A DNA stretch of 63,199 nt, the filler included. It is 4 parts of 4 records of this genome, joined end to end, with 100 filler letters (N's around TTAATTAATTAA, not from the genome) between each part and the next. Parts side by side here need not be neighbours in the genome. Positions count along the whole stretch, not along the records: positions 31,805 to 53,516 come from DRR723986_12590; 3 more parts are not named here. One strand, written 5' to 3'. A program made the translations under genes and the position numbers. The notes below the pieces were generated by a model, which was not told where the DNA came from, did no database searches, and saw nothing but the letters and a program-made list of their open reading frames with translations. Below are positions 15,108 through 53,616 of the stretch, piece by piece. Positions within the stretch are counted from its first letter, which is position 1; every line of letters begins with the position of its first letter.

Positions 15108-15207
15108 NNNNNNNNNNNNNNNNNNNNNNNNNNNNNNNNNNNNNNNNNNNNTTAATTAATTAANNNNNNNNNNNNNNNNNNNNNNNNNNNNNNNNNNNNN
15201 NNNNNNN
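15108..15207. other. Artificial contig spacer
   Basis: N-run + TTAATTAATTAA + N-run; abrupt GC shift across it. Confidence 0.98.
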
Positions 15208-31704: not shown

Positions 31705-31804
31705 NNNNNNNNNNNNNNNNNNNNNNNNNNNNNNNNNNNNNNNNNNNNTTAATTAATTAANNNNNNNNNNNNNNNNNNNNNNNNNNNNNNNNNNNNNNNN
31801 NNNN
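31705..31804. other. Artificial contig spacer
   Basis: N-run + TTAATTAATTAA + N-run. Confidence 0.98.
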
Positions 31805-32592
31805 CGATCATCGCCTTCGTGATCATCATCTTCGTGATCGTCATCCTCACGATCATCGTCTTTGCGATCGTCATCCTCGCGGTCGTTTTCATCTTTGTCG
31901 TCGCGTTCGCCGCCCTTGTCATCGCCCTTGTCATCGTCACGGTCTTCACCACGATCTTCATCGCGGTCTTCACCGCCTGCCGGGTTGTCTTCGGCATCGA
32001 TTGGGGGCGTGGGTGTGGGCGGTGTGGGCGCTTCGGGGTCGGGTTCGCCCGTATCGCCCGGCCCGGTAGGTGTGCCTGGGTTGCCCGGTGTGCCTTCGTC
32101 TTCCGGGTTTTGGGGGCCGGGGGGCGGGGCTGTGGCCTCGGTATCGGCGACAAAGGGTTGGGCCGTGGGCAGCGGTTCTTGGAACAATTCGGTGTATCGA
32201 TACCGCTCAAGCGGCGTGCCGCGGAATTCGATCGCGGAAAACCGCTCTACGCCGCCTTCCAGCGCGGCACTAAAACCGCCGCGTTCGACCAATTCGCTCA
32301 GGCGGCGCATGGCGCCATCTGCCTTTAGATCCTCGGACAGGTTCAGCGTTTCGCACAGTTCTGGCGCTGCGGCCTCGTCTGGCTGAGGCGTGGGGGTGGG
32401 GGATGTTTGCGCATTCACCTCGCCCGGCGCCCAGAACGAGCGCATATACGCGATCAGCGCAAACATCCCACCCAGGCCAAGCATGATTTTGCGGTTGGAA
32501 TGTGGGGCGGCTTTCACCGCCAGTTCCTTCATCGTGTCCAGGCGGTCTTTGCCTGGGGTGATGGCCTTGTTTTTGGAATGAACATTAATCAT
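31805..32592 (-). CDS. T1SS-operon hypothetical protein with Pro-rich linker and Asp-rich repeats (3' truncated)
   Basis: Overlaps the ABC gene by 4 bp (ATGA); one hydrophobic segment, then P/T-rich and D/E-rich low-complexity regions. Confidence 0.7.
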
Positions 32593-34349
32593 GACACAGC
32601 CCTTTCCTGCGCCGCTGCGGCGGCTTCGCCTGCGGCGGGTTGCGTGCGTTTCACCGGGGTGGGGGCGACCTTCATGATTTCGGATTTTGGCCCATATTTC
32701 ACCAAGGCGCCGTCTTGGATGATGCCCACCATATCAACTTGCTCCAATGCGCTGGGGCGGTGGGCGATCACGATCACAATGCCGCCGCGTTCGCGCACCG
32801 ATTTGATGGCGTCGCTGACCGCGCGTTCGCCATCGGCATCCAGGTTCGAGTTCGGCTCGTCCAACAACACCACAAACGGGTCGCCATAAAGCGCGCAGGC
32901 CAGGGCGATACGCTGGCGTTGGCCGCCCGACAGGTTGTGCCCATTGGTGCCCAGCTGGGTTTGATACCCATCTGGCATGGCCACGATCATGTCATGCACG
33001 CCCGCGGCCTTTGCAGCGTTGATGACTTTTTCATCATCAGGCTCGGCCAGGCGGGCAATGTTGCGGGCGATGGTGGTATCAAACAGCGTGTAATCTTGCG
33101 GCAAGTAGCCAAAGATGCCCGAAATCGCATCTTGGTTCCATTGTGTCAGGTCGGCATTATCCAGCCGCACATTCCCGCGCAGCACCGGCCAAACACCCCC
33201 CAGGGCGCGCATCAGCGAGGATTTGCCGCCGCCGCTGGGCCCGATCAGCCCCAGCGCCTGGCCCGCCTGCAGCTTGATCGTGATATCGGCCAAAATCACC
33301 TTGCCGGTCGCGGGCGCAACAACGGTGATGGTATCGGCGCTAAAGCTTTGGGTGGGCATGGGCAGGTTCACATGCTCGGGTTCGTCGGGCATGGCGGCAA
33401 TGGTTTCGCGAATGGTGCCATAGGCATTTTTCGCCATCACGATGTTTTTCCAATTGCCAATCGCTTGGTCAATCGGCGCCAGGGCCCGGGCCGAGGCCAC
33501 CGAGGCCGCGATGATCGAGCCGGCAGTCATATCGCCCAGAATTGTCAGATAGGCGCCAAGGCCCAAAACGGCCGATTGCAGCATCATGCGCAACACCTTC
33601 GAGATGGCGCCCATCGTGCGGGTGACATCGCTAGAGCTGGCTTGCAGATCCAAATGCTGGTCGTTGGCGCGCGAGAACAGCTGCGTGGCCGCACGGGTAA
33701 AGCCCATGGCGCGGATCACATCGGAATTGCGGGCGTTGGCCTCGGCCACCGAGCTGCGATACGAGGCCGCGCGGCTGACATCGCGGTTGGCGCGGCGCGT
33801 CATGATTTCTGTGGCAATGGTCAGCAGCGTCAGCACCACCGCGCCGCCAATGGTGAGCGCGCCCAGATAGGGGTGCAGGAAAAAGACAAAGACCAAAAAG
33901 ATGGGCATCCACGGCAGATCCAGCAGCGCCACCAGGGCGGGGCCGCTGATGAAATTGCGCAGCGTATCCACCATGCGCCCGCGTTCCAGCGACTCGCCCA
34001 GCGAAAAGCCATAGCGCGGCATTTCTATGCTCATCTGATGCACGTCGGGGGCGATTTTTTTGTCAAACCGTGCCCCAACACGGTGCAAAATTTGCGAGCG
34101 GATAACATCCATCACGCCCTGCACGGCATAAAGCCCCAGGGCCAAAACAGAAATCAATGCCAAGGTGGGAATGCTACCGCTCAGCAATGCGCGGTCGTAA
34201 ATTTGCATCATGTAAAAGGCGCCCGTTAGGGCCAGAATATTAATGATGCCTGAAACAAACAGCAGATACAGGCCGATCGACGTCATCCCTTCGGTGATCC
34301 GTGCGATCCGTGCATCGCGTTTCTCTTTTTTCTGCGCTCGGTCCGACAT
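32589..34349 (-). CDS. prtD: Type I secretion system permease/ATPase (PrtD/AprD family)
   Basis: YMMQIYDR, DLPWMPIF, GPSGGGKS, LSGGQRQR and LDEPNSNLD. Confidence 0.9.
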   Translation of the reverse strand: MSDRAQKKEKRDARIARITEGMTSIGLYLLFVSGIINILALTGAFYMMQIYDRALLSGSIPTLALISVLALGLYAVQGVMDVIRSQILHRVGARFDKKIAPDVHQMSIEMPRYGFSLGESLERGRMVDTLRNFISGPALVALLDLPWMPIFLVFVFFLHPYLGALTIGGAVVLTLLTIATEIMTRRANRDVSRAASYRSSVAEANARNSDVIRAMGFTRAATQLFSRANDQHLDLQASSSDVTRTMGAISKVLRMMLQSAVLGLGAYLTILGDMTAGSIIAASVASARALAPIDQAIGNWKNIVMAKNAYGTIRETIAAMPDEPEHVNLPMPTQSFSADTITVVAPATGKVILADITIKLQAGQALGLIGPSGGGKSSLMRALGGVWPVLRGNVRLDNADLTQWNQDAISGIFGYLPQDYTLFDTTIARNIARLAEPDDEKVINAAKAAGVHDMIVAMPDGYQTQLGTNGHNLSGGQRQRIALACALYGDPFVVLLDEPNSNLDADGERAVSDAIKSVRERGGIVIVIAHRPSALEQVDMVGIIQDGALVKYGPKSEIMKVAPTPVKRTQPAAGEAAAAAQERAVS

Positions 34350-34513
34350 GATCTTTCTCCAAATGCATAGTGAGTCGCAGGCAGCTGGCCTGGCTCGAAT
34401 TCTGTGTCTTTGGTGCCATATCGGGGGGTGGGGCCCATCTGCGCTTGGTCTGCCCGGGTTCTAGACTTTCGTCCCAACGGGGGGGTGCTAAAGGTCGGTT
34501 CTTGATCGCGCAT

Positions 34514-34543
34514 AAAAAAACGCACGGCCGAAGCCGTGCGTTT
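34514..34543 (-). terminator. Rho-independent terminator
   Basis: CGCACGGC-TTCG-GCCGTGCG followed by T7 on the minus strand. Confidence 0.8.
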
Positions 34544-34602
34544 AGGTGCGGTGCCAAATGGCAGGGGCACCGGGGAAAAGGAAAAATCTGTAAAAGCGGG
34601 GG

Positions 34603-34869
34603 TTAGATCTGCCCGCGCAGGGCCTGGATGAGGTCGAACAAAATAGTTTCGCCCTTGGCGCCCAGGCCGCGAATGAATTTTGTTTCCATTTCAATGGCTG
34701 TGTCGCTTAGCGCGGTGATTTCGCGCAGGGTTTTGCTGAAAAACGGATCTTCCAGCAACAGCTTGCGCGGCAAGGGGTATTCTGGCAGCCACAATAAATA
34801 ATCGCGAAAGCTGCTGTCGGGCCCGGGCGGGGTATCGTTTTGGTCGGTGCTTTGGCTGTTATGTTCCAT
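34603..34869 (-). CDS. Small hypothetical protein
   Basis: ORF between the haloperoxidase and the terminator; start uncertain (34890 or 34869). Confidence 0.4.
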   Translation of the reverse strand: MEHNSQSTDQNDTPPGPDSSFRDYLLWLPEYPLPRKLLLEDPFFSKTLREITALSDTAIEMETKFIRGLGAKGETILFDLIQALRGQI

Positions 34870-34964
34870 GTTTTGATAAATGACAGTCATCACTGCCCCC
34901 AAATTAAAGTGGTGTCTGCATAGGCCCGCGGCCTGCGCTGAAATTGGTGTTGGCCCGTGCGTGA

Positions 34965-37187
34965 TCAGGCCAACATCCAATCGAAAAATGGGCTGTCTTG
35001 TTCGGTGGTTTGCCCTTGGGCAAAGTCTTGGGCCCGTTCTGCGGCCAGCAGCCCCACACTATCGCCCAGTGTCAGGCCGGCGGTATTGCCTTCGCTGAAG
35101 TGGATGCCGCCAAAAATCCGCGAGGCGCCGGCCTCTTGCGCCATGATATCCAGCGTATCCCAGCTGAAATTCAGGCTTTGATCGGGGAATGTCGGGTCAA
35201 ACTGGCTGCCATTGGGGGCAATAATGGTTGCCGCCCCCAGGGTTTGGCTGCCGGTAAAGGCCTCAAGCACCGCAGCGGCTGCACCGCTAAAGGTGGAATG
35301 CCCCGAGACATATTCCGCAAAGGGCGGCGAGAAATCCCCTTTGGGATTTTGATAGGTTACAAAATTTTCTGCCAAAATCGTGCGGGTGCCCAGGCTGGCG
35401 CCGGTTTCGGGGTCGTAGCCGCCAAAGGCGGTGATCACCTGCCCGGTTTCGCCCGTCAGCTCGTCGGTGCCGGGCGTGCCGATCAGGCCAAGGCGGCCCA
35501 AATCATGAATGGCCTGCACCGGGCGGGCGTAATCGTAATACACTTTCGCATCCCATGCCGCGATGGCGGCATCCATCATGGCATTGCCCATAGCCAAAAA
35601 CAGCGTGGCCGAGGCGCCCGTATCCAGCCCGTCGCGGGCCGATACAAATTGCGCAAATGTCATCATCGTGCCGGGGGGGTAGCTGGTGCCTGGCCCATCC
35701 TCCCAGAACTCGGCCACCGAGCGGCCTTTGGTATCAAGCCCGGCGCTGACATCGATCAGCTGTTGGGCCTGCGCGATAAAGCCTGGGTTAATAACCGTGC
35801 CCACCAAATCTGGCGTTACAGCAATCTCCGCGCCTGCCGGATAGTCGGTGCCATTGATCTGGGCTGCTTTGGCCAAGGTGATGGTGCCGCTGGCAATATC
35901 GAGCTGCGTATCGCCAAAGCCTTGCGTGAAAAACGGTTGCGGCGCCACCGGGCGGATGGTGGAGAAATCGGTAACGCCATCGCTGCCTTGGGGCAGGGCG
36001 AAGGGCTCGACCGTGGCAAATTCGGGCAACAGGAATTTCTGCAGTTTTTGCTGCTGCGTGCCCTTTATATATTCCGGTGTCCAAAGATCGATATTGTTCA
36101 CGGTATCCGGGTTTGGGTTTTTGGGCGTGTATTGCGCAGCGGCGCTGCTGGGCAGCTGGGCAATTTCCTGCAGCCTTGGCACCAGCACATCTTGGGCTGC
36201 ATCCTGGCCGATTTGTGCCGCCAGTTTTTCATTTGTCCGCGGGTCCAGCCCCAGCCGCTGTTGCATGATCTGGTCTAGCACCCCGGCCTTTTGCGGGAAA
36301 ATCGCCGATAAAACGGTGTAGCCGGCGTAATGCATCGCCTCTTCTACCTTATCGGCGCTTGCACGATTGAATTCGATATTGTCGCCCTCGATATCCAGCG
36401 ACACGCGCAGCGCGGTTTCATCATGCGCGGCATAGGCATCGTAAATCGCGGTATGCAGCATGGCATAGATACGCGCGGCATTGGTGGGCCCGGGCATAGT
36501 TTCGGCAACAAGGCTTTGCACCACTTGGTCCCATAGCACGCTTGGGGTTGGGTCGGGTGTGTTCAGCTTGATCCGCGCCAGCCCATCGGCCAGCAGCAGC
36601 GCATCGGGTGCCGTGCTAAGCTGCTGGTGCAGCGTGTCAAAAGCAAACATCTGCCCGCCGATTTCCAGAATCTCGACGTTTTTGATGCTGGTTTCGGCCC
36701 CGCTGAAACGGTCGGTCAGAACAATGCTGTTGCCCTGGGCGCGCAGGTCGCTTTCCCACAGCTGTGCATCAATGCGCAGAATATCGGCCCCGCCCTTGCC
36801 ATCCACCTTTTTGCAGCCTGGCTGATCCAGCAAAAACTGGTCGTTGCCGGCGCCACCCTTTAGGCTGAACGCGTCTTCGCCGGGGGGGGCTGAAATGATC
36901 TGGGCGCTGGGTGCATGATCATCATCATCGCCCCGGTCGGTGTCATCCAGATCTTTTGCAAAGTCTTTTAGTAATTCGGCAATGTTATCGATATCGCGGT
37001 CATCATCATCATCATCGCGGTCGTCATCATCGCAGTCGCGCCCTTGCGTGCGCGCGAAAGAAAACTGATCGTTATCCGCCAAAAGCTGTGCCAGCTTTTC
37101 AAAGTTGCCCTCTTCCAGCAGGCGGCGTGCATCTGGCCAGCGCAACAGATCGCTGCTTTCAAAATTATCTTTATCTGCGTCACCCAT
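34965..37187 (-). CDS. Vanadium-dependent haloperoxidase (PAP2 superfamily) with N-terminal acidic/RTX-like extension
   Basis: KVYYDYARP, PPFAEYVSGHS and SRIFGGIHF vanadate-binding motifs; AGGAG RBS upstream. Confidence 0.9.
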   Translation of the reverse strand: MGDADKDNFESSDLLRWPDARRLLEEGNFEKLAQLLADNDQFSFARTQGRDCDDDDRDDDDDDRDIDNIAELLKDFAKDLDDTDRGDDDDHAPSAQIISAPPGEDAFSLKGGAGNDQFLLDQPGCKKVDGKGGADILRIDAQLWESDLRAQGNSIVLTDRFSGAETSIKNVEILEIGGQMFAFDTLHQQLSTAPDALLLADGLARIKLNTPDPTPSVLWDQVVQSLVAETMPGPTNAARIYAMLHTAIYDAYAAHDETALRVSLDIEGDNIEFNRASADKVEEAMHYAGYTVLSAIFPQKAGVLDQIMQQRLGLDPRTNEKLAAQIGQDAAQDVLVPRLQEIAQLPSSAAAQYTPKNPNPDTVNNIDLWTPEYIKGTQQQKLQKFLLPEFATVEPFALPQGSDGVTDFSTIRPVAPQPFFTQGFGDTQLDIASGTITLAKAAQINGTDYPAGAEIAVTPDLVGTVINPGFIAQAQQLIDVSAGLDTKGRSVAEFWEDGPGTSYPPGTMMTFAQFVSARDGLDTGASATLFLAMGNAMMDAAIAAWDAKVYYDYARPVQAIHDLGRLGLIGTPGTDELTGETGQVITAFGGYDPETGASLGTRTILAENFVTYQNPKGDFSPPFAEYVSGHSTFSGAAAAVLEAFTGSQTLGAATIIAPNGSQFDPTFPDQSLNFSWDTLDIMAQEAGASRIFGGIHFSEGNTAGLTLGDSVGLLAAERAQDFAQGQTTEQDSPFFDWMLA

Positions 37188-37800
37188 CACGGGGCTTCTC
37201 CTTTTTAGCGCGCTGGTCTGGGGCCCGTGCCCGGGCCAGCGTGATGGAATTGTTGCCTCAAACCTAACAGAAGACAGGTGCCACGATATGGCCCAAGGGT
37301 GCCCGCGCCCTATGGACTTTGGTCTAAGAAACGCCCGGAAATTTTGCAAAACCACTGGTTAGGCAAGATTTCGCCTGCCGGGCGCCGTGCCTGTTTGGGG
37401 GGCTGATTCTGCCCTGTCTGATCGCCCTTGCACTGGGGGTGGTTTTTGGGGGCGGGGCGATTTTACGCCTGGTCTAACCGTCGGGTCTGATCTGGGGCGG
37501 AAATTGGTGCTTTATCTGTTAAGCGCCCAAGTTTTTGCAGTAAATATTGCGTAAAAACATATACTTAATTTCCATTTCTTGCGGGCGCAGTCACCCCGTG
37601 TCAGCGCCCCAATGCCCCCCAAACCCCAGACCTTGGTCGGGTGTGGGCCTAACCAAGGTATGAAACGCGGCTCTACCTCTTGGGCATCCGCGCTGCCGCC
37701 CCCTCACATAGTGTCGAGCCATGATTTGACCCGAACCAATGGCCAACTGGGCCTTCATCACACCAAGGGCGGTTGGCCGCTCTTCCTTAGGAGAAAAGAC

Positions 37801-40800
37801 ATGGTTTTTGTAAACACGAATGACCTGAAACATATTCTTGATCAGATTTTCATCGCCGAGCAGCACGCGGCCGGCACCCCTTTGACCGATCTTATTGCCA
37901 ATCCCTTGGCAGCCAAGGGGTTGCGCCTTGTCGACGGTACGTTGAACAACCTTACTCCGGGTCGCGAAACCAGTGGCGCAGCGGATCAAGTGATGCCGCG
38001 CCTGCTGGATTCGACCTTCCTGACGCAGCCTGAGACCGCGCATCTGGCGGACCCGAACCCGCGCGCGCCGCAGGCCGGCCCGACCTCCTACACCCAGACC
38101 GGTGGCTCCGTCTTTGACGCGGACCCTCGGGTGGTTTCGAACCTCGTTGCTGACCAGACGCTCTCCAACCCGGCAGCCATCGCGTCCGCGCTGAAGCACA
38201 GTGGCCTGACCGGTCAGGCCATGCTGGACGTCTCCAACCAGATTTCCGTCGCACATCGCGACGCTCTCGACGCGCAGGCCGCAGTCGGAAACGTTGACCG
38301 GGCGCTCGAGCTGCAGCGCCAGGATCTCCAGGCCGCGCTCGTTGATGCGCGCGCCCAACTGACCATGGCTCAGGACGATGTTGCCGCAAAGACAACCGCC
38401 AAGAACCAGGCTGATCTGGATGCTGCGGCGGCAAAGCAGACGCTCGACGATGCCGCAGCCACCATGGCCACGCTGCAGGGGCAGGGCCAAGTTGCCCAGA
38501 TGCAGACGGCGCTCGGCAATGCCATCGCAGCCCACACTCAGGCGGAAACCGACCTTGCGACAGCTCGGAACACGCTGGCCCAGGCCGAAAGCTCGGCAGC
38601 GTCCATTCTCACTATGCGCAACGCCAAGCAGACCACCGTTAATGATCTGCAGGCCCAGAAAGAAACTGCGGATCAAGATTTGGCCACCGCCGAAGGCTTG
38701 CTGTCCGACGCAGAGGCCACTTTGGCCCGTGAAACCGACTCCGGTGGCGCCGTCGCCGAGGCCCAAATCGCGGTGGACAACGCTACGACCGCTGTCAACG
38801 ACGCGCAGGCGAAAGTGGATGATCTTGCTGCCCAGCTCCAGCAGTCCCAGACCGACCTGAACGATCTCAACGCACGGCTCCAGACCGCAGAGCAGACGCG
38901 TGACGAGGCACAAATCCGCCTGACGGCGGCCGAGGAAGCGGCTGCTGATACTCAGATTGCTCGTGATAACGCGCAGTCCCTCTTCGATACGGAAGTGACC
39001 GAGCTGGCAGCCGCGCAGTCCGCATTCTTCAGCGCACTGGGCACATACATGGCGGGTGGCAGTTTGCTGGACTTTTCGCGCGCCTCCGCTGCTTATTCGA
39101 CCGCCCGCGAGGAACAGTGGGATGCGGAATTGGCGCTGTCGGACGCGATCGCAAAGGATAACGCCGCAGATCAGAAAGTCTCCGACGAAACGGGTGCTTT
39201 AAACCAGGCGCAGTCCCGGGTCATTTCTCTGACCAACCAGCGCGATGGGGTAATCACCACGCGCGACGGTCTCGACGCCCAACTGGGCGCCGCCAATACC
39301 GATCTGTCCGACGCACGCGGCCGGCTGACGAGCGCCGAGCAGACACTGCAGACCGCTAAAGACAACAACCAGGCCTATGTCGATGCGGCGGCCGCCGTTG
39401 ATGCGGCTCAGGCCGATGTCGACACGAAGCAAGGTGTGGTTGACGGTCTTGCGACCCGGCTCAACACCGCCAACCAGGAACTGGCGACGCTCAACACCAA
39501 TCTGCGCAACGCCAATGCCGAAGTCACTCGTCTTGAGGGTGTTGTGCAGACCGAAACCGCCGATCTGCAAACGGCAGCCGGCAATGTCACCACGGCCCGT
39601 CAGGATCTTTCGGCGGCGCAAATGGCTGACGAGGCCATTCTCGCCCAGCTCGATGTGATCGCTGACGCGACCATTAAACTCGTGGAGGCCGATGCGGCGG
39701 CAGAGCTGGCAGCCTCCGCTCTGACCACGGCGGAAGAGACAGAAACCGCCAAACAATCGGCTTTCGACACTGCCACTAGCGATCTTGCCGCTCTGAATGC
39801 ACCCGGTGCGGCCGAAGCCGCGCTCGCGGCCGCAGAGCTTGCAGCTGCCGACGCGCAAACCGCGCTCGACACCCTGCTGGCGACGCATGGTGTGGAATTG
39901 GACGGCAACAACATCGTGATCCCCGACGTCGCGCCCGACGAAGGTCTGTCCGCCCCCTACAACGGCTGGATGACGCTCTTCGGCCAGTTCTTCGACCATG
40001 GTCTCGATCTGGTTGGCAAGGGCGGCAGCGGCACGGTTTACATCCCTCTGATGCCCGATGACCCGCTTTATGTCGAAGGCTCGCCCACCAACTTCATGGT
40101 GCTGACCCGCGCCACGAACCAGCCCGGTCCCGACGGGATCCTCGGCACGGCCGACGATGTTCGCGAGCACATGAACAAGACCACGCCTTGGGTCGACCAG
40201 AACCAGACCTACACGTCGCATGCGTCCCACCAGGTGTTCTTGCGCGAATATGAGCTGGATGCGGACGGCAAGCCCGTTGCCAACGGCAACCTGCTGCACG
40301 GCTCCTCCGGTGGCATGTCCACCTGGGGCGATGTGAAGGCCCAGGCTGCGAACCTGCTGGGCATTCAGCTGAATGACAGCGATGTGCTGGATGGCCCGCT
40401 GCTGGCCACCGACCCCTATGGCAACTTTATCCCCGGCGCCAATGGCATGCCGCAGCTGGTGGTGTCGAACCCCGCCTTTGCCACAGATCCAACCCAGCCC
40501 GAGTTCCTCTTGGTCGAGGGCGATCTGGCCAACCCCGTTGATGCCAGCCAAGCCGTGCGCAATGGCCATGCCTTCCTCGAAGACATCGCCCATAACGCCG
40601 TGCCCAAGGGCATGATCGATCACGACCGCAGCCCCGCCACCCCCGATATCGAGGTGATCCCCGATGCCGATACCGAGGTGGGCAATGCGATCATCCCCAA
40701 CCGGTTTGGGATGAACGAAACCTACGACAACGAGCTGCTCGATCGCCACTTCATCGCAGGTGATGGCCGTGGCAACGAAAACTTTGGCCTGACGGCGGTG

Positions 40801-43800
40801 CACCACATTTTCCACACCGAACACAACCGCCAGGTGGGTGAGATGAAGCAAACCATCATCGACAGTGGCGAGTTGACCTTTATCAACGAATGGCTGCGCA
40901 CGCCTGTCGATGCCACCACCTTGGCCGGGATCACCGCGATCGACGACCTTGAGTGGAACGGCGAGCGTCTGTTCCAGGCAGCGAAATTCGCGACCGAGAT
41001 GCAGTACCAGCACCTCGCCTTCGAGGAATTCGGCCGCCGCGTGCAGCCGCAGATTGCGCCGTTTATGGTGAATGCGTCGCTCGAGATCGATGGTGCGATT
41101 TTCGCGGAATTCGCACATGTCGTTTACCGTTTCGGCCACTCGATGCTGTCTGAAAATGTCCAGACAATGGATGCGAATGGCAACCTGACCGAAACCGGTC
41201 TGATCGAAGCCTTCCTCAACCCCGTAGCCTACGATCAGGATGGCACGATCACGGCGGATCAGGCAGCCGGTGCAGTTGCCCGCGGCATGTCGCGGCAGAC
41301 CGGTGCGAACATCGACGAGTTCATCACCAGCGCACTGCGGGACAACCTCGTCGGCCTGCCGCTCGACCTTGCGGCACTCAACATCACGCGGAGCCGTGAT
41401 ACCGGCGTTCCGTCGCTTAACGAAGCCCGTGAGAAGTTCTTTGCGGCAACCGGTTCCGATGCGCTCAAGCCCTATGAGAGCTGGATGGACTATGGTTCGA
41501 ACCTGAAGAACCCGGCTTCCGTGGTGAACTTCATCGCGGCCTACGGCACCCATGACACCATCACCAACGCGACAACCGTCGCGGCCAAGCGTGCAGCGGC
41601 GATGGACCTGGTCCTTGGTGGCGAAGGGGCACCGGCCGACCGTCTCGACTTCGTGAACGGCACGGGGGCATGGGCTGCGACCGAAACCGGCATCAACGAT
41701 GTCGAATTCTGGATCGGTGGCCTTGCCGAGGCGATCATGCCCTTCGGTGGCATGCTGGGTTCGTCCTTCGGTTTCGTGTTCCAGCACCAGATGGAGAACC
41801 TGCAGAACGCGGATCGTTTCTACTACCTGAGCCGCACGAACGGCATGAACATGATCGGTGAACTGGAGAACAACTCCTTTGCCTCCATGATCATGCGCAA
41901 CACCGACATCAAGGATGGGGGCGCGCATATCCCGGCGGATATCTTCGCCAACATGGAGTACATCCTAGAAGTCGATCAGTCCGTGCAGGCGATCGCGGAT
42001 CCGGTTTCGACCGATGTCGATCCCTTCCTTGCCGCGATGGGCACCAGCCTCGTCCAGCGTGAAACCGCGACTGTGGATGCCCCCTTGGTCGAAGGGCAGC
42101 TGGAGTATGACAACAAGCTGCAGTTCAACGGTGGCGAGCACGCCGTTCTTGGCGGCACCAGCCAGCGCGATATCCTCGTCGGCGGTCTGGGTGATGACGC
42201 GCTGTGGGGTGGTGACGGCAACGACCTTCTCATCGGCAGCTCGGGTGTGAACACCTTCCGCGGTGGTGCCGGCGACGACATCATCAAGGATGGCGATGAC
42301 GTCAGCTTCCTGCATGGCGAAGACGGCAACGACGTGATCTCTGCAGGCGGTGGCGCAGGCGAGCTTATCTTCGGTGGCCGCGGTAACGATGCCATTATGG
42401 TGGGCGCTGATGACGCAAAACATACCTTTGCGGGCATGGGGAACGACTTTGTTCTCGGTGGAGCCGGTTCCGACATCGTCGATGGCGGTGAAGGCGACGA
42501 CTGGATCGAAGGCGGCGACGGGTTCGATTTCCTCTTCGGTGACAACAACGACAACATGGGCGCGTCGCGCGTCCAAGGTCACGATGTGCTCTGGGGCGGT
42601 CCGAACGACAACGACCTTCATGGCGAAAGCGGGGACGATATCCTCGTCCAGGGCGAAGGCACGCATGTGAACCTTGCTGAACTCGGCTTTGACTGGATCG
42701 TCCACAAGGACGCCAATTCCGGAGCTGAAGTCGACCTGACCAAGCGCATCGTGCCGGAACAGGCGGAGTTCTTCAAAGATCGCTACATCGATGCCGAAGC
42801 CGTCTCCGGTACGCACCACAACGACATGATCTGGGGCGACAACCGTATCGGCGATGCAGCACCGGTTGGTGCGGGGCCGCTCGACAACCTGGTCACATTC
42901 TTCGCCAACGAGCTGACCCAGGAAGGTGTGGACCGTATCGATGGCCTGCGCGAATTCCTTGGCAACCTGATGGGGGTCAACCCGCAGGACATGTTCACCG
43001 GCGGTAACATTTTGCTTGGTGGCGGTGGCAGCGATGTCATCCAGGGCCGTGGCGGCAACGATGTCATCGATGGTGACCTGATGCTCAACGTGCGCATCTC
43101 GGTGCGTGATGCGAACAACCCGGATGTCGAGATCCAGTCGATCAACAGCCTCAAGGAGATCCTGCCGCAACTTTTGGATGGCACGATTTCGCCGACGCAG
43201 CTGCAGATCACGCGTGAAATCCTGGACGAAGGGCAGGAAGCAGATGTCGACGTCGCGGTCTATTACGATGTCCGTGACAACTACAGCATCCGCAGCAATC
43301 CCGATGGCAGCGTCACGGTGAGCCACATCAACGTAACGGCAGGCCCGAACCCGATCGATCCGATCAACGGTCGTCCCAATCCGATTGATGGCGATGGTAC
43401 CGACCGATTGACGAATGTCGAAATCCTGCGCTTTGCCGATCAGGAAATCGATCTGCGCATCAATCCCCCGGGCAACGGCGTCATCACGGGTACCCCGGCT
43501 GCAGATGACATCACCGGTTCGCCTGGTATGGACGTAATCTTCGGCGCTGCCGGCGCGGATCAGATCAATGGTCTTGCCGGCAACGACGTGATCTTTGGCG
43601 AAGCTGGCAACGACAACATCATCTGGGATGCTCCCAACGGCGGTTACGACATCGTCATCGGCGGCGGGGACGGCGATGGCATCACCGACGTCGACATGGT
43701 GACGATCAATGCTGATGGCACTGAGACGGCGATCACGATGTACACGGTCGCGGCATGGGCTGACGCAGGTGGTGCTGCGCCGATCGACCCGCTCTCCGAG

Positions 43801-46800
43801 ATCATCATCACGCGGACGGTCGATGGCGTCGAAACGGCGATCATGGAAATCCGTGGGATCGAGGAAGTGACGATCAACGGCGTCACGGGAACCGAAGTGA
43901 TCAGCGCGATCGGCGACTTCACCCAAACCTCGCTGGCACCCAACACGATTTTCGTGAACGGCACGGCGGGGGAGGAAATCATCGACTTCGCAGGCTTCCT
44001 GTCCAACCAGCGTCTGGTTGTCGATGCCGGCGCCGGGGCTGACATCATCACCGGCGGTGCAGGCAACGACATCCTGCTGGCCGGCGATGGCGATGACGAA
44101 GTGACCTGGAGCGTCGGCGGCGGCAGCGATATCGTCGATGGCGGCGCCGGTCAGGACCTCTACACCATCAATGGTGACGGTGCCGACGAAACCTTCCGCG
44201 TCTATGCCGCGGATGCATGGACAGGTGCCCCGGTGGAAACCGGCACCGATATCGTCATCACCCGCGCGGTAGATGGCGGCCCGGAAACCGTGATCGGCCA
44301 GCTGCAAAACATCGAGGAGATCCAGATCAACACCGCCGGTGGTGCCAACAACGTCGAGGTCTTTGGTGACTTCAACAACACCGCGTTGAACTTCAACACC
44401 ATCGCGGTGACCACCGAAGGTGACGTGAACGTCGATGTCTCGCAGCGTCTGTCCACGCACCGCGTGTTCGTCGACGCAGGTGGCACGACCCAGAACGTGG
44501 CACGCTCGCTGAACGTGGCAGGTGTCGTGACCGAGGGTGACGTCTTCCTGATCCCGGTCGATCCGGCCACGCTGACGCGGTCCATCGATGGTCTGACCGT
44601 CACCGAGACCTCGGGGAACTTCACGATGACCTACACGGTCGACGACGTGGATACCTTCCCGGTCCTGGTGCAGTCGGGCACGCCCATGGCTGCCGCCCTG
44701 CGCGGTGTCGCCACGGTCAACGAACAGACTGGTGCGCCGGAAGGGTTCGGTTTCGGTGTCCTGACGCGGGGTGCAACGATGGTCACGGCAGATGACATCG
44801 CGGCTCTGGAATACATGGTCGGTGCGCGTGCTGAGGCCCCGATCCTGCCGCCCGAGCCGGGTCAGCCTGCCGAAAACGAGCCCGCAAACCTCCTGCAAGA
44901 GGTGCGCGACATGGAAGGCTTGACCAACAACGCCCAGAACCCCGAGATCTCGGGTGCGGCGACGAAGCCCTACATGCGGGTGACCGAGGCACGCTACGCC
45001 GGCAAAGGCGAAGATGGCGCAGGCATCGTCAACCCGGTCTTCGACGGGCTGGATGCACGGGCCATCTCCAACGCCCTGGGCGCCCAGGAGGCGGATGCGG
45101 CCAAGGCAGCGACGGTCAACATGTTCATGATGTCCTTTGGTCAGTACTTCGACCACGGCCTCACGTTCATCCCGAAAGGGACCGGTCCGACAGGCAATTC
45201 GCTTGCGCCGATCGAGATCGGTGGCATGGGGGCATCGCGCAACCCGATGGATGACAACCCTGCCGACCTGACCCGTGCAAACGTGGTGGGCCATGATGCA
45301 GACGGCACGCCGCTGCATGAGAACCTCACCTCGCCGGTGGTCGACCAGAACCAGGTCTACGGTTCCTCCACGCTTGTCTGCCAGTTCCTTCGTGAGAGCG
45401 ATGGACAGGGTGGCTTCGGGTCCAAGATCCTGATGGGTGCGGATGATCCTTCGGCAGAGGGCTTCCAGCTCATGTCGACGCTGCGTGAGACGCTGGATCA
45501 CCACATCGACGCTGTCACCGTGTTCAAGGGTGCGGGGCTTCCGGCCGAAGGCATGACGCTGCTCGACTACTATCCGGGTCTGCGGGATGCCGATCGCAAC
45601 TACGATGCCGCACAGGTGAAGATGCTTTCGGACGACTTCATGGGTGAGGGCTGGCCGCTCCTGATCGACACCAACCCGTTCATGAACCTACTCGACCACT
45701 ATGTGGGCGGCGATGGGCGCGCGAACGAGAACGTCGGTCTAACCTCGGTGCACACGGTCTGGGCTCGCAACCACAACTACCATGTGGACCAGATCGCGGC
45801 GCAGGGCTTCAACGGCACACCGGAACAGCTGTTCCAGGCCGCTCGGATCCTCAACATCGGGGAATACCAGCAGGTTGTGTTCAACGACTTTGCCGACAGC
45901 CTTCTGGGCGGTCTGCAGGGCTCGGGTCACCACGGCCATGACGAGTACAACCCGAATGCCGATGCCCGCATCAGCCACGAGTTCGCTGGCGCTGCCTACC
46001 GGTTCGGTCACTCGCAGATCGGGGAGATGATGACGCTCAAGGATGCCGATGGTAACTCCGTCGAAGTCCCGCTGTTCGATCTGTTCCTGAATGCGACGAA
46101 CGATCCGGACGCCTTCCAGGTTGATCATGACCATAACCCCGAAACGCCGATGCTGACCGGTGTGGATGCGGTGAACAAGTTGACGCAGATGGGTTATGTC
46201 CCGCAGCCGGGCTATGCCCAGCACGGGGTGGCGAATATCCTCGGCGGTCTGATCGAACAGCCTTCGGAAGAAATTGACCCGATGGTGGTCGACGCGGTCC
46301 GTACCGATCTGGTGCGCAGCCCCGCTGACCTCTTCGCCTTCAACGTCGCCCGTGGCCGCGATCTGGGCTTGGGTACGCTCAACCAGGTTAAGGCAGATCT
46401 GGCCGCGTCTACCGACCCCTACATCGTGGAAGCGATCGCACAGTCGAACATGAACATGGACCCCTATGCTTCGTGGGATGACTTCAAGGCACGCAACAAC
46501 CTGTCGGAGGCCGAGATCAACAAGTTCAAGGCAGCCTATCCGGACCTTGTGCTTGCAGGTGACGACATCGCGGCATTCGAGCAGGTCAACCCCGATATCG
46601 TCCTGCGTGACGGTGAGAACGGCACCAAGATCGTGGACGGCATCGACCGTGTCGATCTCTGGGTCGGCGGTTTGGCGGAAAGCCACATCGAGGGTGGCGT
46701 CGTCGGTCATACCTTCTGGGTGCTGATCCACGAGCAGCTCGACCGTCTGCAGGAAGGCGACCGGTTCTACTACATCGACCGGATCGGTGACCTGCCCGTC

Positions 46801-47991
46801 TACAACAACTTCATCTCGAACATCACGTTCGGCGATGTGGTTGCCCGTAACACGGGGATGACGGATGTGCCGCTGGATGTGTTCAGCCATGTGCTGGAGG
46901 AGGCTGATCAGCCGGCGACGGTGGCTGGGGCGGCTCCGGCAGATGCACCTGCAACGGATGCGAGTGTAACGGATGCGCCCGTGGCGACTGCACCTGAAGC
47001 GAAAGCGGAGGCAGAAGCAAAAGCGGAAGCAGAAGCAAAAGGGGAAGCAGAAGCAGAAGCAAAAGCGGAAGCGAAAGCGAAAGCGGCAGCAGAAGCAAAA
47101 GCGGCGGCAGAAGCGAAAGAGGCGCAAGCAACCTCTGATGCCGAGTATGACGATGGGGCCGAGGCACCCGAACACAAGGTGCTGGTGGCCACAGGTGTCG
47201 AGGCACTGATCGCTGGTGCAGGCAATGACGTGCTGCGCGGTGGTGAGGGTTCCGATTTCTTGATGGCAGGCGATGGTGCCGACATCATGATGGGCGGGGC
47301 ATGCAACGATGACCTGATCGCGGGTGAAGGCGACGACATGGTCTATGGCGATGCCGGCAACGACCGCATCTTTGCCGATGGTGGCAACGACACCATCGTT
47401 GGGGGCAGCGGTGCCGATATGGCCTACGGTGGCGAAGGCGATGACACCTTCATCGGCACCGATGGTGACGGCAACGACATCTACTACGGTGGTTCCGGGA
47501 CCGACACGATCGATCTGTCGGCCATCACCGAGGCGCTGGAAATCCGCCTGGGCAACGCCGGCACCGAGCGTGGCTCGGTCACCGGGGGCGGCCAAATGGA
47601 TGTGATCTGGGGCTTTGAGAATGCCATCGGCGGCGCCGGCGACGACAAGATCGTGGCCAGCGAGGCTGCAAACATTCTCGATGGCGGCGCAGGCAACGAC
47701 ACCTTTGTGTTTGAAACCGCAACCGCTGCCAATGGCACCATGATCAAGGGCTTTGCCGCAGGCGACGTGCTGTGCTTTAGAGACATCGATGCCGATACCA
47801 GCATGGATGGCCACCAGGGCTTTACCCTGGCAGGGCGCGGCGCCGAGATCGGTGCAGGCGAGCTGACATTCTCGCACGGTAGCGAAGAGGGTGCCGATAT
47901 CACCACGGTGATTGGCATGACCAACGAAGGCCAATTCGAGGTGAAACTGAGCGGCCATGTGAACCTTGAGGAGGAGAGCTTCCTGCTTTGA
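37801..47991 (+). CDS. Giant RTX protein with two animal heme peroxidase domains (MopA-like)
   Basis: Two sets of FGQ(F/Y)FDHGL, R(G/A)NEN and YRFGHS motifs; many GGxGxD repeats; AGGAG RBS before ATG 37801. Confidence 0.93.
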   Translation: MVFVNTNDLKHILDQIFIAEQHAAGTPLTDLIANPLAAKGLRLVDGTLNNLTPGRETSGAADQVMPRLLDSTFLTQPETAHLADPNPRAPQAGPTSYTQTGGSVFDADPRVVSNLVADQTLSNPAAIASALKHSGLTGQAMLDVSNQISVAHRDALDAQAAVGNVDRALELQRQDLQAALVDARAQLTMAQDDVAAKTTAKNQADLDAAAAKQTLDDAAATMATLQGQGQVAQMQTALGNAIAAHTQAETDLATARNTLAQAESSAASILTMRNAKQTTVNDLQAQKETADQDLATAEGLLSDAEATLARETDSGGAVAEAQIAVDNATTAVNDAQAKVDDLAAQLQQSQTDLNDLNARLQTAEQTRDEAQIRLTAAEEAAADTQIARDNAQSLFDTEVTELAAAQSAFFSALGTYMAGGSLLDFSRASAAYSTAREEQWDAELALSDAIAKDNAADQKVSDETGALNQAQSRVISLTNQRDGVITTRDGLDAQLGAANTDLSDARGRLTSAEQTLQTAKDNNQAYVDAAAAVDAAQADVDTKQGVVDGLATRLNTANQELATLNTNLRNANAEVTRLEGVVQTETADLQTAAGNVTTARQDLSAAQMADEAILAQLDVIADATIKLVEADAAAELAASALTTAEETETAKQSAFDTATSDLAALNAPGAAEAALAAAELAAADAQTALDTLLATHGVELDGNNIVIPDVAPDEGLSAPYNGWMTLFGQFFDHGLDLVGKGGSGTVYIPLMPDDPLYVEGSPTNFMVLTRATNQPGPDGILGTADDVREHMNKTTPWVDQNQTYTSHASHQVFLREYELDADGKPVANGNLLHGSSGGMSTWGDVKAQAANLLGIQLNDSDVLDGPLLATDPYGNFIPGANGMPQLVVSNPAFATDPTQPEFLLVEGDLANPVDASQAVRNGHAFLEDIAHNAVPKGMIDHDRSPATPDIEVIPDADTEVGNAIIPNRFGMNETYDNELLDRHFIAGDGRGNENFGLTAVHHIFHTEHNRQVGEMKQTIIDSGELTFINEWLRTPVDATTLAGITAIDDLEWNGERLFQAAKFATEMQYQHLAFEEFGRRVQPQIAPFMVNASLEIDGAIFAEFAHVVYRFGHSMLSENVQTMDANGNLTETGLIEAFLNPVAYDQDGTITADQAAGAVARGMSRQTGANIDEFITSALRDNLVGLPLDLAALNITRSRDTGVPSLNEAREKFFAATGSDALKPYESWMDYGSNLKNPASVVNFIAAYGTHDTITNATTVAAKRAAAMDLVLGGEGAPADRLDFVNGTGAWAATETGINDVEFWIGGLAEAIMPFGGMLGSSFGFVFQHQMENLQNADRFYYLSRTNGMNMIGELENNSFASMIMRNTDIKDGGAHIPADIFANMEYILEVDQSVQAIADPVSTDVDPFLAAMGTSLVQRETATVDAPLVEGQLEYDNKLQFNGGEHAVLGGTSQRDILVGGLGDDALWGGDGNDLLIGSSGVNTFRGGAGDDIIKDGDDVSFLHGEDGNDVISAGGGAGELIFGGRGNDAIMVGADDAKHTFAGMGNDFVLGGAGSDIVDGGEGDDWIEGGDGFDFLFGDNNDNMGASRVQGHDVLWGGPNDNDLHGESGDDILVQGEGTHVNLAELGFDWIVHKDANSGAEVDLTKRIVPEQAEFFKDRYIDAEAVSGTHHNDMIWGDNRIGDAAPVGAGPLDNLVTFFANELTQEGVDRIDGLREFLGNLMGVNPQDMFTGGNILLGGGGSDVIQGRGGNDVIDGDLMLNVRISVRDANNPDVEIQSINSLKEILPQLLDGTISPTQLQITREILDEGQEADVDVAVYYDVRDNYSIRSNPDGSVTVSHINVTAGPNPIDPINGRPNPIDGDGTDRLTNVEILRFADQEIDLRINPPGNGVITGTPAADDITGSPGMDVIFGAAGADQINGLAGNDVIFGEAGNDNIIWDAPNGGYDIVIGGGDGDGITDVDMVTINADGTETAITMYTVAAWADAGGAAPIDPLSEIIITRTVDGVETAIMEIRGIEEVTINGVTGTEVISAIGDFTQTSLAPNTIFVNGTAGEEIIDFAGFLSNQRLVVDAGAGADIITGGAGNDILLAGDGDDEVTWSVGGGSDIVDGGAGQDLYTINGDGADETFRVYAADAWTGAPVETGTDIVITRAVDGGPETVIGQLQNIEEIQINTAGGANNVEVFGDFNNTALNFNTIAVTTEGDVNVDVSQRLSTHRVFVDAGGTTQNVARSLNVAGVVTEGDVFLIPVDPATLTRSIDGLTVTETSGNFTMTYTVDDVDTFPVLVQSGTPMAAALRGVATVNEQTGAPEGFGFGVLTRGATMVTADDIAALEYMVGARAEAPILPPEPGQPAENEPANLLQEVRDMEGLTNNAQNPEISGAATKPYMRVTEARYAGKGEDGAGIVNPVFDGLDARAISNALGAQEADAAKAATVNMFMMSFGQYFDHGLTFIPKGTGPTGNSLAPIEIGGMGASRNPMDDNPADLTRANVVGHDADGTPLHENLTSPVVDQNQVYGSSTLVCQFLRESDGQGGFGSKILMGADDPSAEGFQLMSTLRETLDHHIDAVTVFKGAGLPAEGMTLLDYYPGLRDADRNYDAAQVKMLSDDFMGEGWPLLIDTNPFMNLLDHYVGGDGRANENVGLTSVHTVWARNHNYHVDQIAAQGFNGTPEQLFQAARILNIGEYQQVVFNDFADSLLGGLQGSGHHGHDEYNPNADARISHEFAGAAYRFGHSQIGEMMTLKDADGNSVEVPLFDLFLNATNDPDAFQVDHDHNPETPMLTGVDAVNKLTQMGYVPQPGYAQHGVANILGGLIEQPSEEIDPMVVDAVRTDLVRSPADLFAFNVARGRDLGLGTLNQVKADLAASTDPYIVEAIAQSNMNMDPYASWDDFKARNNLSEAEINKFKAAYPDLVLAGDDIAAFEQVNPDIVLRDGENGTKIVDGIDRVDLWVGGLAESHIEGGVVGHTFWVLIHEQLDRLQEGDRFYYIDRIGDLPVYNNFISNITFGDVVARNTGMTDVPLDVFSHVLEEADQPATVAGAAPADAPATDASVTDAPVATAPEAKAEAEAKAEAEAKGEAEAEAKAEAKAKAAAEAKAAAEAKEAQATSDAEYDDGAEAPEHKVLVATGVEALIAGAGNDVLRGGEGSDFLMAGDGADIMMGGACNDDLIAGEGDDMVYGDAGNDRIFADGGNDTIVGGSGADMAYGGEGDDTFIGTDGDGNDIYYGGSGTDTIDLSAITEALEIRLGNAGTERGSVTGGGQMDVIWGFENAIGGAGDDKIVASEAANILDGGAGNDTFVFETATAANGTMIKGFAAGDVLCFRDIDADTSMDGHQGFTLAGRGAEIGAGELTFSHGSEEGADITTVIGMTNEGQFEVKLSGHVNLEEESFLL
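46996..47120 (+). repeat. In-frame EAKA(E/A)A repeat (charged helical linker)
   Basis: GAAGCRAAAGCGGAAGCA-type tandem units within the peroxidase gene. Confidence 0.8.
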
Positions 47992-48043
47992 CCGAGAAAG
48001 GGTCTTTTCCTCGACGGTAACCGGGCGTCCCCCCGGTTGCCCC

Positions 48044-48077
48044 GGCAGCCAAGGTCCCCGCCTTGGCTGCCTTTTTT
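48044..48077 (+). terminator. Rho-independent terminator
   Basis: GGCAGCCAAGG...CCTTGGCTGCC followed by T6; preceded by a second hairpin at 48016-48041. Confidence 0.85.
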
Positions 48078-48154
48078 GTGGCCCATGCGAATGGCGATTG
48101 ACCGCTGCGATAAGGGGTTGTTTTCTGGGGGCAATATTCCAACAGGGGGCACCT

Positions 48155-49525: not shown

Positions 49526-49540
49526 GGCGCGCCCGCCCTG

Positions 49541-53516: not shown

Positions 53517-53616
53517 NNNNNNNNNNNNNNNNNNNNNNNNNNNNNNNNNNNNNNNNNNNNTTAATTAATTAANNNNNNNNNNNNNNNNNNNNNNNNNNNN
53601 NNNNNNNNNNNNNNNN
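53517..53616. other. Artificial contig spacer
   Basis: N-run + TTAATTAATTAA + N-run. Confidence 0.98.

Follow-up and report, generated by a model that had tools for sequence, protein, structure and literature searches.

We describe here a bacterial gene cluster in which genes for a vanadium haloperoxidase (VHPO)-like protein and a giant heme peroxidase of the MopA type are linked to the gene of a type I secretion system (T1SS) exporter. The cluster lies in a window of 63,199 bases, the whole stretch of DNA that was analysed, which is a chain of four contigs joined by linkers composed of 44 N, TTAATTAATTAA and a further 44 N (15108-15207, 31705-31804 and 53517-53616). In light of these linkers and of the contrast in G+C content between the first contig (1-15107; 29-39%) and the remaining ones (54-66%), the adjoining contigs stem from different organisms and provide no context for one another. 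The locus itself occupies a single metagenome contig, window positions 31805-53516; position 31805, which the first-pass annotation had taken as the boundary of the locus, is a contig end with a linker directly before it and not a biological border. The open reading frames (ORFs), together with matches in Pfam and NCBIfam, bear out the three genes recognized in that annotation, namely those for a PrtD-type ATP-binding cassette (ABC) exporter, a VHPO-like protein, and a divergently oriented repeats-in-toxin (RTX) protein of 3396 residues with two heme-peroxidase domains. The ORF map places an intergenic region of presumed promoters (37191..37800, no strand assigned) between the VHPO-like gene and the peroxidase gene; a consensus scan found no sigma-70-like site within it. 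Among the ORFs of the contig, Pfam and NCBIfam matches revealed neither an HlyD-type membrane fusion gene nor TolC. Genes for an M20 dipeptidase and an oligopeptide importer follow downstream of the peroxidase gene and were left out of the system.

A giant heme peroxidase of the MopA type

The peroxidase gene (37801..47991, plus strand) codes for 3396 amino acids (aa) counted from M75 of a 3470-aa ORF. The An_peroxidase model of Pfam matches the whole protein with 420 bits distributed over six stretches, and a piecewise scan resolves two separate domains scoring 171 and 228 bits, each of which contains the QxFDH, GDGRxNE and YRFGH motifs exactly once. A conserved N-terminal segment (residues 1 to ~125) is followed by an Ala/Gln-rich, proline-free, coiled-coil-like region (~130-690) and by domain 1 (~700-1440), with QFFDH at residue 729, GDGRGNE at 987 and YRFGH at 1109. 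Beyond an RTX block (1461-1745) and a repeat-rich middle part lies domain 2 (~2395-3030), with QYFDH at 2448, GDGRANE at 2637 and YRFGH at 2733; an Ala/Glu/Lys linker then leads to the C-terminal RTX block (3147-3300) and the tail ...NLEEESFLL. Domain 2 aligns with lactoperoxidase, peroxinectin and myeloperoxidase over the distal His/Arg and the proximal His motifs. Sixteen GGxGxD motifs are distributed over three blocks (PF00353, 170 bits), and a single strict PERCAL motif, as defined in the available text of Santamaria-Hernando 2012 (PMC3396595), is found in domain 1 as GPDGILGTADD at residue 776.

A search with domain 1 scored 8000 candidates, of which 2956 fell below E 0.001, including many two-domain proteins of the Pseudomonas putida type (3585-3619 aa; 53-55% identity) and roseobacter proteins at 83-96% identity, for instance from Gymnodinialimonas phycosphaerae and Roseicyclus marinus. 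The gene is hence a member of a large, known family; Table 3 of PMC3396595 records two-domain roseobacter proteins of 3045-3377 aa and, in addition, A6FKA5 and A6FV45 of Roseobacter sp. AzwK-3b. Orthologs in the relatives described below measure 3305-3424 aa, and the whole protein shares 53-83% identity with those of the genome G145 and other relatives across all five parts. The domains and their motifs, the RTX blocks, the PERCAL motif and the identity of domain 1 to the P. putida-type proteins uphold the MopA-like assignment of the first-pass annotation.

The N-terminal ~125 residues show 60-70% identity among five orthologs. A profile comparison also aligns this segment, weakly and collinearly, with the beginning of domain 2 (hhalign E 0.013; 32% over 65 columns), and BLASTP of the N-terminus against domain 2 returned no match. 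As a domain-2-like N-terminal segment precedes the coiled-coil stretch, domain 1 may be split by a long coiled-coil insert of ~560 residues (window 37801-39870).

A vanadium haloperoxidase-like protein with secretion-type features

The VHPO-like gene (34965..37190, minus strand) codes for 741 aa from a GTG at 37190; the longest ORF extends to 37355, and both the homologs and the contigs from RNA libraries favor a start at GTG 37190 or ATG 37187. Pfam matches to DUF6851 (43 bits) and VCPO_2nd (40 bits) each exceed their cut-offs, and PAP2 gives a weak match of 18 bits. An acidic N-terminus, disordered in the structural model (residues ~1-105), is followed by an RTX-like beta-roll (~108-210) containing GGAGND and GKGGAD, a catalytic part made of two bundles (~215-741) and the tail ...DSPFFDWMLA.

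Sequence comparison with the PDB yielded 14 matches, of which 13 are to VHPO-family proteins (best 9ptr, E 2.4e-16) and the last is an insignificant hit to a hydroxylase (E 0.96). Of 74 collected sequences (73 homologs plus the query), 24 were aligned, and the residues of the vanadate site, K549, R556-P557, S629-G630-H631, R691 and H697, are invariant in 24/24 of them, in keeping with the first-pass claim that the vanadate-binding motifs are intact. The corresponding motifs K..RP, SGH and R...GGIH line up with those of 9ptr and NapH3, and we take the individual residues to match the vanadate-site residues of the Curvularia enzyme in its numbering. An AlphaFold (AF2) model derived from the same alignment has a mean predicted local distance difference test score of 81.6. 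In Foldseek searches of the PDB with this model the 17 best matches all belong to the VHPO family (E 1.9e-21 to 1.8e-10), headed by NapH1 (3w36; E 1.9e-21, template-modeling (TM) score 0.77), NapH3, XhnO11, the Zobellia iodoperoxidase and the Curvularia chloroperoxidase, and acid phosphatases appear only at E ~0.1, covering one bundle. The modeled protein thus has the fold of two four-helix bundles typed as VHPO. Motifs and predicted fold together do not separate halide oxidation from phosphatase chemistry, and we propose use of vanadate and a halide by this protein as its probable activity.

Several features of the protein are of the kind expected of a T1SS substrate. The beta-roll at residues 108-210 of the model matches RTX block V of the adenylate cyclase toxin (Foldseek probability 1.00 over ~100 residues), no hydrophobic N-terminal signal was detected in the protein, and the tail is kept throughout the clade, where PF-x-D/E precedes a run of four or five residues, most of them hydrophobic. 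Such a pattern is that of PrtD-type secretion signals. RTX-like motifs positioned N-terminal of the catalytic part are unusual among type I substrates. Together with the linkage described below, these predicted features support co-secretion of the VHPO-like protein with the giant peroxidase well, and the exporter encoded in the cluster is the likely route.

Proteins with DUF6851/VCPO_2nd matches are widespread, as a single scan recovered 571 loci, and they are common in cyanobacteria and planctomycetes; loci L011-L053 include those of Trichodesmium erythraeum (L034), Microcystis (L038) and Prochloron (L021). Members of the family often have RTX repeats at the C-terminus, as cyanobacterial relatives do, with PF00353 found in 10 and PF13946 in 4 of the 73 listed proteins. 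From its sequences, the family looks like one of secreted VHPO-like proteins with no characterized member in the literature searched (subscription papers and supplements were not visible). The present finding accordingly draws attention to a large family of secretion-tagged VHPO-like proteins that awaits characterization, many of them from cyanobacteria such as Trichodesmium and Microcystis.

Conservation of the linkage between the two enzymes

We then examined the genomic context of related proteins. A pattern scan for the VHPO-like protein over one genome per species gave 601 stretches, 571 of them coding for a relative, and the best 80 loci were kept. A tblastn search of these best 80 of 571 loci with the proteins of the window detected parts of the peroxidase in two (L001 and L002) and a PrtD-like ABC gene in one (L004). 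Within the family of L001, 401 genomes were sampled: 13 contain a VHPO-like protein at E <= 1e-20 and 85 an An_peroxidase, and in five (G058, G001, G206, G169 and G145) the VHPO-like protein is at least 50% identical to that of the window.

Complete clusters, with peroxidase, ABC, HlyD and VHPO-like genes and the gene of an RTX protein that we term X all within 25 kb, are present in G206, G169 and G145, whose VHPO-like proteins are 50-58% identical to that of the window (tblastn and Pfam). Their gene orders differ. In G169 the order on one strand is regulator, kinase, peroxidase, ABC, X, HlyD and VHPO; G206 has the peroxidase and VHPO genes together, then two-component genes and ABC-X-HlyD; G145 has the peroxidase, a kinase, and ABC-X-HlyD followed by a small ORF and the VHPO gene. 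A further arrangement, X-HlyD-small ORF-VHPO, then the regulator and ~6 kb further on the peroxidase, is shared by L002 and G436. The two halves of the G436 cluster lie on separate contigs; both contig ends have 77-81% DNA identity to the continuous L002, and synteny with the latter suggests that the two halves adjoin across the contig break. In G001 the 3' end of the peroxidase gene lies 390 bp upstream of the VHPO gene, at a contig end. The nearest relative, G058, displays the divergent layout of the window on two short contigs, with 90-99% identity in the VHPO-like protein and 99% in the ABC protein.

In sum, eight assemblies link the VHPO gene with the exporter and/or the giant peroxidase in at least five gene orders, contig ends cutting the cluster in four of them (window, G058, G001 and L002). 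The idea of a chance neighborhood, or of a VHPO gene inserted once and in the present contig alone, can hardly be maintained, as it is refuted by synteny: the linkage persists in these eight assemblies though the gene order changes and the VHPO identity drops to 50%. The co-occurrence check proposed in the first-pass annotation thereby turned out in its favor.

A tree of 81 VHPO-like rows was computed with FastTree, with Shimodaira-Hasegawa (SH)-like supports, from an initial 88 rows; the seven rows removed comprise three that were short and four that duplicated retrieved loci or were fragments of them, and G058 and G436 are absent from it. The six peroxidase-linked VHPO-like proteins in the tree form one clade with an SH-like support of 100. 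On the basis of this single clade, the linkage arose once and was retained as the VHPO-like proteins diverged to 50% identity. In the sister clade (L003-L010 and L077) the neighboring genes vary by locus. One of its members, a metagenome-assembled genome (L003:605-5263), encodes a VHPO-like protein of 815 aa and, directly after it, an An_peroxidase of 546 aa with a single domain (81 bits); a scan of three ORFs downstream (~4.3 kb) showed no type I exporter. This is a second, independent adjacency of a VHPO-like and a heme peroxidase gene, in a single case.

The exporter and the accompanying protein X

The exporter (32589..34349, minus strand) is a 586-aa protein without an N-terminal peptidase domain that matches TIGR01842 (type_I_sec_PrtD, NCBIfam) with 630 bits against a cut-off of 510, as well as ABC_membrane and ABC_tran of Pfam. 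It is 69-74% identical to the products of the ABC genes in G145, G169, G206 and G436. Next to it, the contig end cuts an ORF of which the 5' part remains (31805..32592, minus strand; 262 codons in translation), corresponding to a conserved N-terminus, one membrane helix and an acidic low-complexity stretch. Over its first 64-87 residues it shares 40-46% identity with the starts of the X proteins in G145, G206 and G169, and the copy in G058 is 84% identical to it. The X proteins of these three genomes measure 557-646 aa (genes in relatives at L085:6587-8260, L081:7194-9134 and L089:2674-4524), and in all three the gene lies between those for ABC and HlyD, a position that is invariable wherever the cluster was seen. 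X proteins share the N-terminus MIxVHSxNKAxTPG..RLD.M, a single membrane helix, an acidic stretch rich in Gly and Pro, and RTX repeats; no family match beyond the repeats was obtained, and the Atlas clusters retrieved contain generic RTX proteins only.

Directly after X in G145, G206 and G169 comes a gene for an HlyD-family protein of 442-455 aa (Pfam HlyD_3 and HlyD_D23), and tblastn located an HlyD gene in L002 and G436 as well. Because the cut ORF of the window matches the starts of X, the HlyD gene of its cluster is expected just beyond the contig end. General Pfam scans of the cluster ORFs in the window, G145, G206 and G169 revealed no TolC-type channel.

Presence in RNA libraries

The stretch or a part of it is present in 19 runs from nine studies, comprising seawater, marine, algae and estuary metagenomes, and six of these runs are RNA libraries. 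Contigs from four of the RNA libraries (X14-X17) were aligned to 31805-49600 at a likeness threshold of 90%; such contigs attest to presence only, and transcript ends and levels are not shown by them. In X14 a single contig of 10,414 nt covers 37764-48051 and so exceeds the peroxidase ORF by 37 and 60 bases at its two ends, another (31805-34383) spans X and ABC, and two further ones cover VHPO (34973-36212 and 36686-37213). Similar pieces occur in X15, from the same study, and the metatranscriptomes X16 and X17 contain small pieces on VHPO and the peroxidase. The contigs stop at 37213 on the VHPO side and start at 37737/37764 on the peroxidase side, positions that, coming from contigs, cannot prove RNA ends. 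Both 37214-37736 and 48437-49600 (the M20 peptidase) have next to no contig cover in X14 and X15, to which we attach no weight as evidence. The coiled-coil part of the peroxidase (38283-39847) is represented in the X14/X15 strain by 1566 other letters that are less than 90% alike, the flanks being 95-99% alike.

Functional implications

One VHPO homolog bears the annotation 'Hemolysin-type calcium-binding region [Roseobacter sp. AzwK-3b]', and this organism, the model for superoxide-mediated bacterial manganese oxidation, has two copies of the VHPO-like protein (EDM72831.1 and EDM69974.1). Given that they are 90% identical to the VHPO-like protein of G145 and 85% to that of L002, AzwK-3b belongs with the linked VHPO clade. 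Table S1 of Zerfass 2019 (PMC6328764) has three 'hemolysin-type' proteins of AzwK-3b among the predicted peroxidases, and two of these, A6FKB3 and A6FV55, are numbered close to the heme peroxidases A6FKA4-6 and A6FV44-45. This closeness of accessions fits two copies of the cluster in AzwK-3b and is no proof of them; the presumed adjacency of the genes in AzwK-3b is based on the 90% identity to G145 together with the neighboring UniProt accessions. Oxidation of Mn(II) and formation of superoxide by the AzwK-3b peroxidase are known through works cited in the available parts of PMC6328764 and PMC6247904. According to the model in the accessible text of Medina 2018 (PMC6247904), a secreted heme peroxidase makes superoxide, and H2O2 remains once this superoxide has oxidized Mn(II) to Mn(III); net oxidation then requires removal of the H2O2, as Mn(III) is otherwise reduced again. 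The same text ascribes this removal to the heme peroxidase itself and gives a Michaelis constant (KM) for H2O2 of 13 mM for the homolog PepA, so that the task is assigned to an enzyme that, in a homolog, handles peroxide poorly.

In light of these observations we tentatively propose, at a likelihood that we would place just short of even, that the heme peroxidase and the VHPO-like protein perform coupled extracellular oxidative chemistry as a conserved roseobacter module. The PrtD-type T1SS would export three calcium-binding proteins, namely the giant peroxidase, X and the VHPO-like enzyme, using the ABC exporter encoded here, an HlyD partner past the contig end and an outer-membrane channel encoded elsewhere. 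Outside the cell the heme peroxidase would act as in AzwK-3b, making superoxide and oxidizing Mn(II) while leaving H2O2, which the VHPO would spend on the bromide, chloride or iodide of seawater to give hypohalous acid. The net effect would be the removal of peroxide that otherwise reduces Mn(III) back, and the hypohalite may additionally oxidize Mn(II) or act on neighboring cells. Hypobromite reacts with a second H2O2 to oxygen and bromide, a net catalase-like reaction, and can oxidize Mn(II). A narrower and more speculative version, which we consider unlikely as it stands, is that the VHPO is the missing extracellular peroxide sink of roseobacter manganese oxidation and at the same time opens a second, halide-relayed route, in which H2O2 is converted to hypobromous acid that would either dismutate more peroxide or oxidize Mn(II) itself.

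Several points weigh against such coupling. Within the available flanks no giant peroxidase accompanies the VHPO-like genes of the sister clade; these flanks comprise the full 10 kb on either side for L005, L006, L010 and L077 and less on at least one side for L003, L004 and L007-L009. More distant VHPO-like proteins, 45-47% identical to that of the window, lie apart from giant peroxidases, by 1.7 Mb in G458 (45% identical) and on a different contig in G440. Among the 401 sampled genomes, at least 11 contain peroxidase frames of 1688-3118 aa but lack this VHPO, which implies that the giant peroxidase can do without it. A strong terminator-like hairpin of the window (34518..34543, minus strand, from a consensus scan; 11 base pairs including 7 G-C, then a T run) lies between the VHPO stop and the ABC start and divides the VHPO gene from the exporter operon. 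The RTX-like motifs of the VHPO-like protein precede its catalytic part, PAP2 phosphatases have the same active-site motifs, and one of its close structural matches, NapH3, is no halogenase. Furthermore, the Erythrobacter MopA is little affected by peroxide scavengers, as the available text of PMC6247904 has it.

The strongest competing explanation, which we deem somewhat less likely than coupling, is that the VHPO, X and the giant peroxidase simply share one dedicated exporter as its three cargoes, their jobs being unrelated and not chemically coupled. Cargo genes usually adjoin the gene of their exporter. The fact that all linked VHPOs fall in one clade is explained equally well by shared use of an exporter, and exporter genes are indeed found in the cluster wherever the contig allows, in the window, G058, G206, G169, G145, L002 and G436. 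In keeping with this, L004 of the sister clade has an ABC gene of its own (39% identical) and an HlyD gene beside the VHPO-like gene, with no peroxidase in the 12 kb of sequence available, and the genomes that have the giant peroxidase alone point the same way. Against this stands the arrangement in G001 and G206, where the VHPO gene comes directly after that of the peroxidase, the exporter of G206 being ~3.8 kb further on, past the two-component system. The L003 locus likewise pairs a VHPO-like protein with a small heme peroxidase where the three ORFs scanned downstream contain no exporter, and since both enzymes handle peroxide, we infer that an unrelated pairing is less likely a priori.

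It is improbable that the VHPO-like protein is no haloperoxidase at all, acting instead as a secreted PAP2-type phosphatase or as a non-halogenating homolog comparable to NapH3. Such a role would agree with the active-site motifs held in common by PAP2 phosphatases and VHPOs, with the weak PAP2 match, with the place of NapH3 among the best structural matches and with a phosphate-transporter-type permease (DUF3708) ~3 kb downstream in G169. The permease is a neighbor in that one genome only, the sequence and fold matches summarized above are to the VHPO family with acid phosphatases far behind, and the protein keeps the Ser-Gly-His triad, unlike NapH3 and 9ptr.

If the coupling of the heme peroxidase with the VHPO is real, it would tie bacterial manganese cycling to marine halogen chemistry. 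Should the peroxide-sink version prove correct, vanadium and bromide would be required for the formation of manganese oxides by bacteria in seawater, and marine reactive bromine would have an unrecognized source in these bacteria. The presence of the VHPO in the cluster, its secretion features and the two copies in AzwK-3b, which can be cultivated, make it a testable candidate for the peroxide remover.

Regulators and other features of the cluster

In G145, G206, G169 and G436 the cluster comes with genes for a HAMP histidine kinase and a LuxR-type response regulator (two-component genes at L085:387-1130 and 10268-12160, L081:11348-14086 and L083:4010-6736), and of this pair only the regulator was seen in L002. 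No such pair is encoded on the contig of the window. We consider these two-component genes candidate regulators of the cluster. A small ORF of ~110-165 aa without a family, 52-55% identical among G206, G145 and G169, adjoins either the start of the peroxidase gene or VHPO in these genomes (L081:14076-14573, L085:12215-12538 and L083:6776-7126); a counterpart was not found in the window. An ORF at 34603-34980 (125 aa) is probably no gene, having no Pfam or NCBIfam family and a counterpart in G058 alone, which is broken into two pieces.

Terminator-like sites are not in excess in the region, with six found by the consensus scan against 5.3 in shuffled sequence. Some X16 and X17 contigs match only the hairpin between VHPO and ABC (34511-34543) and have the same unrelated AT-rich sequence on either side of it. 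As they continue into this unrelated sequence, the hairpin sequence is present in another organism or element too.

Comparison with known systems

The giant peroxidase and its secretion are already known, and what is new is the VHPO-like partner, X and the linked two-component system. The first-pass impression that the pairing of a VHPO with a heme peroxidase had not been described appears to hold, as we found no paper on it in the literature searched and none linking a vanadium haloperoxidase to MopA-type peroxidases or to AzwK-3b, subscription papers and supplements not having been visible. For the peroxidase, the named comparators are the MopA-type 'long peroxicins', that is, MopA of Aurantimonas manganoxydans and Erythrobacter SD-21, PepA/MopA of Pseudomonas putida and the AzwK-3b proteins. 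The protein described here resembles them as a giant calcium-binding protein with RTX blocks, two An_peroxidase domains in which the distal and proximal motifs are complete, a single PERCAL-type insert within domain 1, and a tail for type I secretion at the C-terminus; manganese oxidation by it is presumed from this likeness. It differs in the coiled-coil-like stretch of ~560 residues before domain 1, and its cluster differs in containing the VHPO-like partner, X and, in G145, G206, G169 and G436, the LuxR-type two-component system, none of which is mentioned in the literature consulted.

The VHPO-like protein shares the two-bundle fold (TM scores of 0.72-0.78 relative to the target) and all vanadate-site residues with the structurally solved NapH1 (3w36), XhnO11 (9l8x), Zobellia (4usz), 9ptr and Curvularia chloroperoxidase, whereas its identity to them in structural alignments is 16-22% and it has an acidic N-terminal region, an RTX-like beta-roll and a secretion-type tail of its own. 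Unlike these proteins it is encoded in a T1SS/heme-peroxidase cluster and not in a natural-product cluster. Compared with PrtD/PrtE/PrtF secretion of serralysins and lipases, the system shares a peptidase-less ABC exporter of the PrtD subfamily, an HlyD partner in the orthologous clusters, RTX cargoes and an acidic-then-hydrophobic extreme C-terminus. It departs from that scheme in the gene for a membrane-anchored RTX protein between ABC and HlyD and in a VHPO cargo whose RTX-like motifs lie N-terminal of the catalytic part. The closest precedent for such clustering is the mbb locus of the red alga Asparagopsis taxiformis (PMC12115072), where a generator of reactive oxygen, an NADPH oxidase (NOX), is clustered with peroxide-using enzymes, three vanadium bromoperoxidases. 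The mbb locus is eukaryotic, has a NOX rather than an animal-type heme peroxidase and no secretion system, and leads to bromoform.

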